From assembly GCA_018402525.1 (NCBI GenBank), contig JAGYIR010000013.1, positions 29,390-93,389 on the forward strand: DNA of 64,000 bases, in the 5' to 3' direction. The DNA comes from Crocinitomicaceae bacterium (lineage in GTDB: Bacteria > Bacteroidota > Bacteroidia > Flavobacteriales_D > Crocinitomicaceae). How positions within the stretch are numbered: the stretch's first letter is position 1; the number at the start of each line of letters is the position of its first letter. Position numbers and translations under genes: made by a program. A model generated the notes under the pieces. The model was not told the DNA's origin. It saw nothing but the letters and a program-made list of their open reading frames with translations, and made no database searches. This document shows, one piece after another, positions 43,072 to 45,048 of this stretch.

Positions 43072-44097
43072 TTATGGTCTTCTCTGTGGAGTTGTCCTTG
43101 TCGGAGTGCTACGCGGAGGTGAACTTGGTCGCACTTGCGGACTTCGATTCTGCGAAGGCTTTGGAGTATACTGCGGTGTTCGATTTGGCGACGTGCGTGT
43201 GTCCATACGCGGCGTCGGGTTAGGGTTATTCATCGTTGGATTCGTTCTTGGAGTATGCGTTGGCGCAGTGCTCTCTGGACGTTCCATAATACGTTCATTC
43301 GAAACTGGTTTTTGATTAGGAGTGCCTTCATGTTTTACTGGCTTACCAGTGTTCATCGGCACAGAACCTACCTTCGCCGCTTGTTTGTTTCTAGGCAAAC
43401 TACTTTGAGCTGCTATGTGCTTTTGACTTTGGTAATACGTTTTTGAATAATTCTTGTTCTTGTAATAAAATGTATGCGCATGGTAAGATCGGTAAAATCC
43501 ACATGGTCGGTAGTATCCGTAGAAAGGATGCACATATCCGTAGTACATGTCCCATGGGTATGGTCGCCAAGGGTTGTGCCAGTGAGGATAAAATCCGTAG
43601 TGCCAAGGAGAAACCCAGATTACATACTGTGGACCATACATGTATTGTACGGTAGGCCAGTGATTAACATTCGCAGCCGTTCTGTCTGACTCTGTTCTCG
43701 GCTCAATAATGTAATCGCGACCGTAAAGTGCTTCGTCACCAACTATCTGAACTACGGTATTATTGTCATCCGGTTTGTCCAAATGAATTACCGCAACATC
43801 TTGGATATCGTCTGCACTAAAGGCTACTTGCAACGTCACTAAATGAATCGTTCCACTTGAGTAATTTACAACGCGGATGTAATCGACAAATCCATCATCG
43901 TTTAAATCGAGGTTGTTCACTTTTGATTTTTCCGAATTCAACTCGCGTTCGAAATCTTCGAGATTCTTCGATTTTTTAAATAATTCTAATACCGCATTTA
44001 AATCCAAGTTAGCGCCAGGCAATCTAGTATTTGCCGCGACAGAAAAACTGGAGAGTGAGAATGCGATAAGTCCGAGAAATAAGATAAATGCTTTCAT
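43072..44097 (-). CDS. Hypothetical secreted protein: EF-hand-like loop, aromatic/His-rich core, Pro/Thr/Arg-rich tail
   Basis: Signal peptide MKAFILFLGLIAFSLSSFSVAA, a DLNDDGFVDY loop, a WHYGFYPHWHNPWRPYPWDMYYGYVHPFYGYY segment and a disordered PT/R-rich C-terminus. Confidence 0.6.
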   Translation of the reverse strand: MKAFILFLGLIAFSLSSFSVAANTRLPGANLDLNAVLELFKKSKNLEDFERELNSEKSKVNNLDLNDDGFVDYIRVVNYSSGTIHLVTLQVAFSADDIQDVAVIHLDKPDDNNTVVQIVGDEALYGRDYIIEPRTESDRTAANVNHWPTVQYMYGPQYVIWVSPWHYGFYPHWHNPWRPYPWDMYYGYVHPFYGYYRPCGFYRSYHAHTFYYKNKNYSKTYYQSQKHIAAQSSLPRNKQAAKVGSVPMNTGKPVKHEGTPNQKPVSNERIMERPESTAPTHTPRTNPTMNNPNPTPRMDTRTSPNRTPQYTPKPSQNRSPQVRPSSPPRSTPTRTTPQRRP

Positions 44098-44312
44098 GAC
44101 GTTTGATTTTTACTTTTCTTATATGTTTTGACCGATAAAACCTTTATTGGTGTAATCGAAAATTTCAATTTCTGTGCCAGTCTTATACAAAATTACGTTT
44201 TTTAACTCTTTTTGTCTTTTGTAAGAAACACATAAATATAACGAATTTTTTAGCGTTAACGTGTGGGGTGGCGCTAGAAAATTGCTAAAGAACGTTAAAT
44301 GAAAATGATGTG

Positions 44313-44518
44313 GGATTACTCCGTGATCCCCTAAAGGGGGTGTTCAAGACCAAAAGTCCTTTTCATCGCTGAAGCGCTGAAGACTTTTTCATTTCATAGC
44401 CCAGCTCAAGACGGGGTCTTTATGATTTGAAGAATATTAGGATTACTCCGTGATCCCCAAAGGGGGATGTTCAAGACCAAAAGTCCTTTTCATCGCTGAA
44501 GCGCTGAAGACTTTTTCA
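44313..44518. repeat. Two copies of a 79-bp structured element (127-bp spacing)
   Basis: 44313-44391 and 44440-44518 are nearly identical: GGATTACTCCGTGATCCCC..AAAGGGGG..TGTTCAAGACCAAAAGTCCTTTTCATCGCTGAAGCGCTGAAGACTTTTTCA. Confidence 0.85.
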
Positions 44519-44547
44519 ACTGACGTTGAAAATGGACTTTTGGTCTT

Positions 44548-44809
44548 GCGGAGAGAGGGGGATTATTCCGCTGCGCTCCATGCTTTCGTCGTGCCTCCTC
44601 AGGTCGAACCCTGGGTTCTCATCTCACCTCTCTAAACCTAAAAAGTCCAACCTTTCGGTTGGACTTTTCGCGGAGAGAGGGGGATTATTCCGCTGCGCTC
44701 CATGCTTTCGTCGTGCCTCCTCAGGTCGAACCCTGGGTTCTCATCTCACCTCTCTAAACCTAAAAAGTCCAACCTTTCGGTTGGACTTTTCGCGGAGAGA
44801 GGGGGATTC
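44548..44809. repeat. 122-bp perfect tandem repeat x2, plus a partial third copy that forms the 3-prime end of tRNA-Ser
   Basis: 44548-44669 is identical to 44670-44791. The next 18 nt (44792-44809) repeat again and run into the tRNA gene. Confidence 0.9.
44762..44790 (-). terminator. tRNA-Ser terminator hairpin (identical copy at 44640-44668)
   Basis: AAAAAGTCCAACC-TTTC-GGTTGGACTTTT. On the minus strand the stem is followed by TTTTT. Confidence 0.7.
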
Positions 44810-44877
44810 GAACCCCCGTTACGTTTCCGTAAACACGCTTTCCAAGCGTGCGCGTTCAGCCACTCTGCCACCTCTCC
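44793..44877 (-). tRNA. tRNA-Ser (anticodon GGA), type II with long variable arm
   Basis: Folded by hand. Acceptor GGAGAGG/TCTCTCC+G, anticodon stem CACGC/GCGTG with loop TTGGAAA, variable arm TTACG-GAAA-CGTAA, T arm GGGGG-TTCGAAT-CCCCC. CCA is not encoded; 85 nt. Confidence 0.9.
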
Positions 44878-44903
44878 ATTCCTTAACTATTTTAAGGTGG
44901 CCA

Positions 44904-44911
44904 CAAATCTA
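44904..44911 (-). promoter_or_regulatory. Candidate Bacteroidota -7 promoter element (TAGATTTG) upstream of tRNA-Ser
   Basis: Matches TAnnTTTG about 27 nt upstream of the mature tRNA 5-prime end. No convincing -33 TTG at standard spacing. Confidence 0.3.
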
Positions 44912-45048
44912 CGAATTCAAATGAGATTGCGAATGGAATGGTAAAATCTTTTTAAAATGCACGAATTGACATTCAAAATCCGTCGTTTAGCGTATTTTAA
45001 AAGTCACCTTAAAATGCAATCTTTGTATTGTAAAATTAATTTAAAAAG

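Follow-up and report, generated by a model that had tools for sequence, protein, structure and literature searches.

The Escherichia coli tyrT repeats comprise 178 bp in 3.14 copies, and to our knowledge the function of the RtT RNA associated with them has been open since the E. coli work of 1978-1991. As cited in PMC4986893 and bioRxiv 10.1101/2024.07.17.603846, processing of the tRNA is reported to set RtT free from the tyrT primary transcript of E. coli (Bosl & Kersten 1991), and the same citing passages link it to the stringent response as a suggested role in E. coli; RtT function is still described as unknown (bioRxiv 10.1101/2024.07.17.603846). The tyrT repeat RNA shows covariation-supported helices and tandem GA (PMC8250186), RtT homologues beside Asn and Lys tRNA genes of A. 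pleuropneumoniae give Northern signals (PMC4986893), and on RtT modification the pseudouridine-mapping preprint PMC11623569 holds no usable result, merely citing the RtT paper. Here we analyzed a 64,000-nucleotide (nt) stretch of Crocinitomicaceae DNA (the window), in which two tandem cassettes follow a tRNA-Ser(GGA) gene on the minus strand. Judged from their sequence, the cassettes belong to the RtT family of structured repeats, originally found after the tyrosine tRNA genes of E. coli and a known though poorly understood kind of element, and their best explanation, which we consider probable, is that they are short, diverged RtT-family tRNA-trailer repeats built around the neighbouring tRNA's own 3' end.

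The sole ARAGORN tRNA call in the window was this tRNA-Ser(GGA), at 44792-44877 on the minus strand (Rfam tRNA model, 51.4 bits; cloverleaf fold, -38.8 kcal/mol, z-score -3.2), in agreement with an earlier interpretation of the same DNA, hereafter the sequence-only reading. On the minus strand the gene is followed by a hairpin, cassette 1, the same hairpin, cassette 2, a different and longer hairpin, and two 79-nt repeats. The two perfectly identical 122-bp units described in that reading were recovered by a repeat search (44548-44669 and 44670-44791) and by Tandem Repeats Finder (period 122, 100% matches, 44548-44808), the ".1" fraction of the 2.1-copy array being a third copy of the tRNA 3' end. 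Both the 17-mer GCGGAGAGAGGGGGATT from the tRNA end and AATCCCCCTCTCTCCG, the tRNA 3'-end copy, occur three times at 122-nt spacing, with a shuffled-sequence expectation of 0 for each searched motif. Position by position, GAGAGGTG and AATCCCCCTCTCTCCG of the cassette equal tRNA positions 2-9 and 70-85 at equal spacing, as had been claimed, and the GAACCC-A-GGGTTC palindrome and GGTTCGA string pointed out at the same time are both present. The hairpin said to follow every cassette, AAAAGTCCAACC/GGTTGGACTTTT, was found just twice, after the tRNA (44763-44790) and after cassette 1 (44641-44668). Hairpin 1, which resembles a terminator, caps a longer palindrome; a simple terminator scan left it unflagged at 44763-44790. 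The distal hairpin, longer than and different from hairpins 1 and 2, has its arms at 44530-44548 and 44472-44490.

A tRNA gene or pseudogene was considered as an identity for the cassettes and rejected: they drew no ARAGORN call, which went to the genuine tRNA only, and no Rfam tRNA match at E <= 10.

In the E. coli K-12 tyrV/tyrT trailer, the unit reads GGGGAAGGAUGAGAAGC-UUCGACCAA-GGUUCGAC ... GAGUAAUCCUUCCCCCACCACCA, with a GAGUAAUCC junction running into the tRNA-Tyr 3' end; its 5' arm agrees with the tRNA 3' end read as reverse complement and does not match the 5' end of tRNA-Tyr. The window unit likewise comes immediately after a tRNA gene, 3' of it and in the same orientation (unit 1 begins 33 nt past tRNA-Ser(GGA)) and consists, from 5' to 3', of a 5' arm, a GAUGAGAACC-loop-GGUUCGAC hairpin, a variable middle, a GAAUAAUCC junction in the place of the E. 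coli GAGUAAUCC, and a direct tRNA 3'-end copy, the layout being tandem with an x.14-type copy number. As in RtT, the tandem repetition stops at a partial copy made up of the tRNA 3' end (2.1 copies, 100% identity). The 5' arm is the inverted complement of the tRNA T-stem and acceptor 3' strand and pairs with the terminal tRNA 3'-end copy, as the E. coli arm does, to form helix P1, which in the window joins AGAGAGG with CCUCUCU (7 bp) and, in addition, GAU with AUC. The P2 motif, GAUGAGAA(C/G)C-loop-GGUUCGAC flanked by tandem GA, is shared with E. coli and appears in the window as GAUGAGAACCC-A-GGGUUCGAC at 44745-44725 and 44623-44603. The variable middle is cut to about 38 nt in the window cassettes, and the junction before the tRNA-end copy, G(A/G)RUNAAUCC, is GGAAUAAUCC in the window and GGAGUAAUCC in a relative about 90% identical (L034; comparison loci carry the prefix L). 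Unlike E. coli RtT, the window units stand behind a tRNA-Ser(GGA) and not a tRNA-Tyr, with no CCA encoded, in a member of the Flavobacteriia (Crocinitomicaceae/Fluviicola-like) and not an enterobacterium; they measure 89 nt (122 with the hairpin) against about 130-178 nt, lack the inner helices P3, P5 and P6, are separated by a terminator-like hairpin, and score under the Rfam threshold.

This anatomy changes how the cassette ends are to be read. Their 5' end had been taken for a tRNA 5' end; however, the complement of the discriminator and CCA is part of the family 5' arm, which is therefore an inverted tRNA 3'-end copy, reaching TGGCGG... in relatives that encode CCA, which a tRNA 5' end cannot supply (L167). 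In the window, the likeness of GAGAGGTG to the tRNA 5' end follows simply from the complementarity of the two acceptor strands. The interior, described as unrelated to the tRNA, is so only in part: GGTTCGA marks the beginning of the T-arm, and the first ~21 nt of the interior repeat the tRNA's T-arm and acceptor 3' strand imperfectly in inverted orientation. Equal length with the tRNA, 85 nt, holds at this locus but is not conserved: homologous units span 67-155 nt, and the match is thus a coincidence.

The Rfam RtT model (RF00391) matched both cassettes weakly but over its full length (24.3 and 25.7 bits, E 0.043 and 0.019) when the window was scanned at a permissive threshold of E <= 10, and at this threshold the only matches at the locus were tRNA, sX4, RtT and chance microRNA hits. 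The same Rfam model gave 134-137 bits on the E. coli tyrV/tyrT trailer, at a hit spacing of 178 nt. We then used a broader covariance model, R1, built from A2, a MAFFT alignment of 19 metagenome units and the E. coli unit that aligns end to end, with a curated structure of P1, the GAU/AUC pairs, P2 (GAACC/GGUUC), P3, P5 and P6; no window-type sequence was included. On the 64-kb window R1 returned exactly two matches, which were the two cassettes, at 38.5 bits each (E 7e-8, whole model). It retained P1, the GAUGAGAACCC/GGGUUCGAC hairpin and the GGAAUAAUCC junction in its alignment of the window cassettes, scored L034 at 35.4, L141 at 29.6, L136 at 26.0 and L083 at 23.9 bits, recognized four units in E. 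coli (41-49 bits), and found 97 units across all loci. The window cassette is accordingly a minimal, truncated, sub-threshold RtT member, in a phylum and behind a tRNA without such annotation. Of the explanations that the sequence-only reading had offered, a tRNA-like small-RNA family came nearest to the evidence, in the form of RtT homologues, though the family is known already and not new.

The fourth E. coli unit, of RtT type, lies in the K-12 tyrT-tyrV spacer (L179, 1367-1486, 41.3 bits). The RefSeq E. coli K-12 record annotates just one rttR, at locus positions 1067-1237.

A hammerhead-like ribozyme, prompted by a CUGAGGAG...CGAAA string, was also tried and rejected; no Rfam ribozyme matched at E <= 10, and the string is missing in relatives such as L083.

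To survey the family, metagenome contigs were searched with the pattern GAGAGN{2,6}GATGAGAACN{2,6}GGTTCGA (GAGAG..GATGAGAAC..GGTTCGA), made of motifs common to the window and L083 and favouring tRNAs with CUCUC ends. The scan yielded 86 metagenome contigs. ARAGORN placed a tRNA on the same strand within 700 nt upstream for 62 of the 95 pattern matches tallied, a tally that takes in four reference loci (the window, L034, L083 and L179, the last with no match). The tRNAs ahead of the units were Ser-GCT (22), Gln-CTG (16), Ser-GGA (9, including 3 in the window and L034), Ser-TGA (8) and Gln-TTG (4), together with Arg, Tyr, Val and Ser-CGA. Most contigs show a tRNA 3' end, a terminator-like hairpin, (TGGC)GGAGAGAGAGG, three variable nucleotides (nnn), GAUGAGAACCC-loop-GGUUCGAC and several hairpins, and the units close with GARUNAAUCC and a copy of the same tRNA's 3' end, CCA included; frequently two or three stand in tandem at 150-180-nt spacing. 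The 5' arm always fits the local tRNA, pairing GCGATTGGAT with ATCCAATCGC behind tRNA-Val and GACAGGAT with ATCCTGTC behind tRNA-Arg, and reaching a 15-bp arm pair, TGGCGGAGAGAGAGG/CCTCTCTCTCCGCCA, behind a tRNA-Ser in L167. Across the family, unit length ranges from 67 to 155 nt. The window cassettes share the full architecture of these unannotated RtT-like units (L093-L172) and are nearest to the short forms of L141, L136, L145, L151 and L083, with which they have GGUUCGACCUGAGGAG and a GACGAAA-containing middle in common, whereas most metagenome units are long (104-155 nt), encode CCA and have covarying helices P3, P5 and P6. The Rfam RtT threshold was reached by none of the 20 best metagenome loci (the nearest, L158, scored 36 bits), which indicates that the Rfam model is much narrower than the family.

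Many of the contigs L093-L172 start or stop inside units, and L001 and L084-L088 break at the tRNA or at the repeats. It seems, therefore, that assemblies commonly break beside tRNA genes because of such arrays.

The family helices covary strongly. In A2, 87.4% of cells were paired compared with 76.4% in shuffles, and 86 double-change cells were observed compared with 30 in shuffles (0 of 500 shuffles as high), while slid controls gave 34-54% paired; compensatory change was seen in 8 of 9 P3 pairs and 5 of 5 P6 pairs. In A3, which comprises the 97 units, compensatory changes were present in 30 of 35 pairs and slid controls were 32-54% paired, pair counts that are inflated since A3 was fitted to R1. 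A short-form alignment of eight units (the window, L034, two from L141, L136, L145, L151 and L083) confirmed P1 and P2 and contained no conserved helix in the 38-nt middle. The strand had been called undecidable from sequence; however, in the internal helices of the model-fitted alignment G-U outnumbered A-C pairs by 58 to 18, which favours a folded strand of tRNA polarity. On A2 the same comparison was uninformative (21 to 18), P1 being out of register.

Xanthomonas small RNA sX4 (RF02223) offers a second point of comparison, as its model runs from a tRNA-Ser through the hairpin behind it into the first part of a GGGGGGUGAGA... arm. This model scored 42.8 bits on 44744-44890 of the minus strand, a stretch that covers the tRNA-Ser, hairpin 1 and the beginning of cassette 1, under its gathering score of 70, and most of these bits come from the tRNA itself. 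The Northern band of sX4 measured 280-300 nt compared with 156 nt expected from sequencing (PMC3300014), a size compatible with a tRNA-Ser-plus-trailer co-transcript in Xanthomonas. The connection of sX4 to RtT-like units is not stated in PMC3300014 and is one that we infer.

Among close relatives, a metagenome contig with an identical response-regulator gene (L001) has the same cassette and ends within the repeat. L034 is a metagenome-assembled genome whose neighbourhood is about 90% identical. Its single cassette is 96% identical, frayed at the 3' end but with both P1 and the GAUGAGAACCC/GGGUUCGAC hairpin preserved, and is followed by a 4.5-kb insert with a gene for 1360 amino acids. Copy number differs between relatives, with two units here and one in L034. 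In L083 and L085, whose response regulators are 92% and 87% identical, tRNA-Ser(GGA) is followed by repeats that close with the tRNA 3' end and differ in part of their interiors, and L083 has a diverged cassette homologue. The trailer is therefore a rapidly changing array, its units being built on the 3' end of the tRNA. The 3' module of the 79-nt repeats farther downstream in the window stands before an intact copy of the tRNA-Ser 3' end in both L083 and L085 (...GGGAUCAUGAAAUAAUCCCCCUCUCUCC), and these repeats are probably decayed units of a second trailer-repeat type; R1 gave no match on 44313-44391 or 44440-44518.

At 742-822 of L034, a pseudo-tRNA 5' fragment, composed of GGAGAGGTGG, a foreign hairpin and an anticodon-arm-like stretch, immediately precedes the genuine tRNA-Ser(GGA). 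The window has no such fragment.

If the cassettes act as RtT-type trailers, read-through from the tRNA-Ser promoter would carry transcription into the units, on the tRNA strand, and the tRNA 3'-end copies would serve as 3'-processing sites, cut by the enzymes of tRNA 3'-end maturation. Small RNAs would thereby be released, with the closing helix P1 imitating a stacked acceptor/T-stem and stabilizing the product; the predicted minus-strand product would end at ...CUCUCUCCG, with or without added CCA. The 5' arm could alternatively pair with the preceding tRNA end, and arrays may grow and shrink via unequal recombination or slippage between units. The truncated form in the window may be weakly functional or decaying.

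Several observations weigh against assigning the window cassettes to RtT-family trailers, besides the inflation of the A3 pair counts by the fit to R1. At 24-26 bits the cassettes remain under the RF00391 gathering score of 45, and the R1 alignment deletes the inner helices P3, P5 and P6, which are absent from them. Folding of the 85-nt unit, proposed earlier as a check, did not help its case, the cassette alone being no more stable than shuffles on either strand (z +0.3 to +0.5). Between the window and L034 the cassette is 96% identical, not clearly above the flanks at 88-95%, and so gives no clear sign of purifying selection on the window copy. Furthermore, the strong terminator-like hairpin between the tRNA and each unit means that transcription of the units would need read-through.

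The first alternative, which we consider unlikely, is that the cassettes are a non-functional by-product at the DNA level, left over from an RtT-type unit without remaining activity: template-switching during replication would extend the terminator palindrome, copying the tRNA 3' end first inverted and then direct, and slippage would duplicate the 122-bp unit. The most stable structure at the locus is indeed not the cassette (z +0.3) but an imperfect 83-nt palindrome (-46.1 kcal/mol, z -7.4; 0 of 200 shuffles as stable), in which the tRNA T-arm and acceptor 3' strand pair with the 5' arm of cassette 1 across hairpin 1, the palindrome taking in the first 25 nt of that cassette. In many family members, too, the tRNA 3' end, terminator and 5' arm form a near-perfect long inverted repeat (L109, L146, L167), and the missing P3, P5 and P6, the very unstable trailer region between relatives and the 100% identity of the two copies, which indicates recent duplication, would all suit such an origin. 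Copying of a tRNA end would not, however, account for non-tRNA motifs that E. coli, the metagenome units and the window have in common, namely GAUGAG for the T-loop complement GAUUCG, GAC after GGUUC, and the GAGUAAUCC junction. Strong covariation in P3, P5 and P6, helices that correspond to nothing in a tRNA, points to family-level selection on a folded strand, and neither the window nor L034 has lost P1 or P2. If the window copy is a relic, the by-product view is a fair description of that copy.

On read-through, the 83-nt palindrome (-46.1 kcal/mol) would compete with the tRNA cloverleaf (-38.8 kcal/mol).

A miniature mobile element, resembling a miniature inverted-repeat transposable element or RNA-mediated, that would settle at tRNA 3' ends and copy its terminal arms anew from whichever tRNA it targets appears very unlikely. 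Its terminal inverted repeats would be the arm pairs of up to 15 bp per unit (TGGCGGAGAGAGAGG/CCTCTCTCTCCGCCA, L167), and both the standing of units in arrays and the presence of the family behind at least nine tRNA species in diverse bacteria fit a spreading element. The arms nevertheless follow the adjacent tRNA (Val GCGATTGGAT, Arg GACAGGAT), unlike terminal repeats defined by a transposase, no dispersed copies away from the tRNA occur within the window, and no associated transposase or reverse transcriptase was seen among the family-locus neighbours examined, so the classical form of this proposal, as put forward in the sequence-only reading, is not upheld. Serial att-site scars, in which elements targeting the tRNA-Ser 3' end integrated repeatedly and were then deleted to leave attL/attR remnants, we hold to be least credible of all: the 106-nt segments of non-tRNA DNA between direct 16-17-nt tRNA 3'-end copies downstream of the gene are the formal signature of tRNA integration, relatives show a synteny breakpoint downstream of the array, and a large serine recombinase adjoins the unit in one of nine family loci examined (L094), but no integrase lies near the locus in the window, L034, L083 or L085, the other eight downstream neighbours are non-recombinase, heterogeneous housekeeping genes or without Pfam match (including RpiA, TetR, citrate-synthase-like, CHAD and Mg-chelatase/ComM-like), and the inverted tRNA-end copy, the conserved GAUGAGAAC hairpin of the structured core and the covarying internal helices would be left unexplained. 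The interior had no match in 50,697 phage records and 2.9 million viral contigs searched with four patterns, the GAGAG-to-GGTTCGA family pattern was likewise found in none of the 2.9 million viral contigs, and BLAST against the phage records matched the tRNA itself only; the cassettes thus show no phage or plasmid homology.

With the assignment to RtT-family trailer repeats, the seeming "tRNA with swapped core" becomes a recognizable element with corrected anatomy. As an observation it is ordinary in kind, the wider family pattern being the more interesting part: the RtT architecture extends to Ser, Gln, Arg, Tyr and Val tRNAs, being found in many uncultured bacteria as well as one Flavobacteriia genome, and Rfam's present RtT model misses nearly all of the surveyed units. 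A broad alignment together with naturally minimal versions helps to find the essential parts of RtT, and annotation pipelines could flag units that are now left as unexplained repeats or contig breaks beside tRNAs. A more far-reaching proposal, which we regard as doubtful, is that RtT-type units are a phylum-spanning class of structured RNAs behind many tRNAs, with arms matched to the host tRNA 3' end, each unit being both antisense to and a mimic of the acceptor/T-arm, and that the 85-nt form of the window is a minimal working version defining the core of P1, the GAUGAGAACC/GGUUCGAC hairpin and the AAUCC junction. If this were true, such RNAs could regulate or decoy tRNA 3'-end maturation, CCA addition or the sensing of uncharged tRNA.

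Table 1 Features of the tRNA-Ser(GGA) trailer locus, numbered along the 64,000-nt window.
Feature	Position	Strand	Evidence
tRNA-Ser(GGA) gene, no encoded CCA	44792..44877	-	ARAGORN, Rfam tRNA, cloverleaf fold
Imperfect palindrome, 83 nt	44735..44817	-	Fold -46.1 kcal/mol, z -7.4
Tandem array, 122 nt x 2.1 copies, 100% identity	44548..44808	.	Tandem Repeats Finder and repeat search
Hairpin 1, AAAAGUCCAACC-GAAA-GGUUGGACUUUU(U), also read AAAAGUCCAACC-GAAA-GGUUGGACUUUUU	44763..44790	-	Sequence, motif search, fold
Hairpin 2, identical to hairpin 1	44641..44668	-	Motif search
RtT-like unit 1	44671..44759	-	R1 38.5 bits; Rfam RtT 24.3 bits
Unit 1 5' arm AGAGAGG	44755-44749	-	Sequence
Unit 1 GAUGAGAACCC	44745-44735	-	Sequence
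Unit 1 GGGUUCGAC	44733-44725	-	Sequence
Unit 1 junction GGAAUAAUCC, then tRNA 3'-end copy	copy 44686-44671	-	Sequence
RtT-like unit 2, identical to unit 1; tRNA 3'-end copy 44564-44549	44549..44637	-	R1 38.5 bits; Rfam RtT 25.7 bits
Distal hairpin past unit 2, arms CAAGACCAAAAGUCC and GGACUUUUGGUCUUG	44472..44548	-	Inverted-repeat search, sequence
Two 79-nt repeats, 96% identity, ending in CCCCnUUnGGGGAUCACGGAGUAAUCC	44313-44391, 44440-44518 (span 44313..44518)	-	Repeat search

The window neighbours of the array are Era, a Pro-rich protein, a response regulator and a kinase. On the upstream side, the response regulator, kinase and asparaginase are conserved, whereas synteny breaks just downstream of the array (window 43072-44300, L034 1027-5544, L083 1-4228, L085 1-4011). 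The downstream content comprises a Pro-rich protein of 341 amino acids (no Pfam match) and Era in the window, the 1360-amino-acid protein, of secreted type, in L034, a 2298-amino-acid protein in L083, and ExbB/ExbD genes in L085. Of 80 genome loci with Era, L034 alone has a tRNA-Ser adjoining it, and the response regulator adjoins the tRNA only for proteins at least 87% identical (L083-L088); the more distant L089-L092 have no tRNA there.

Moreover, an open reading frame of 132 codons with a TTG start (44526-44924, plus strand) runs antisense to the whole array and the tRNA, and is most likely spurious. Upstream of the tRNA start by 27 nt, TAGATTTG is found at 44904-44911 (minus strand) and is kept as TAGTTTTG in L083, L084 and L085; it resembles TAnnTTTG, the consensus of the Bacteroidetes -7 promoter box. 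A near-copy, TAGGTTTA, directly precedes each cassette.

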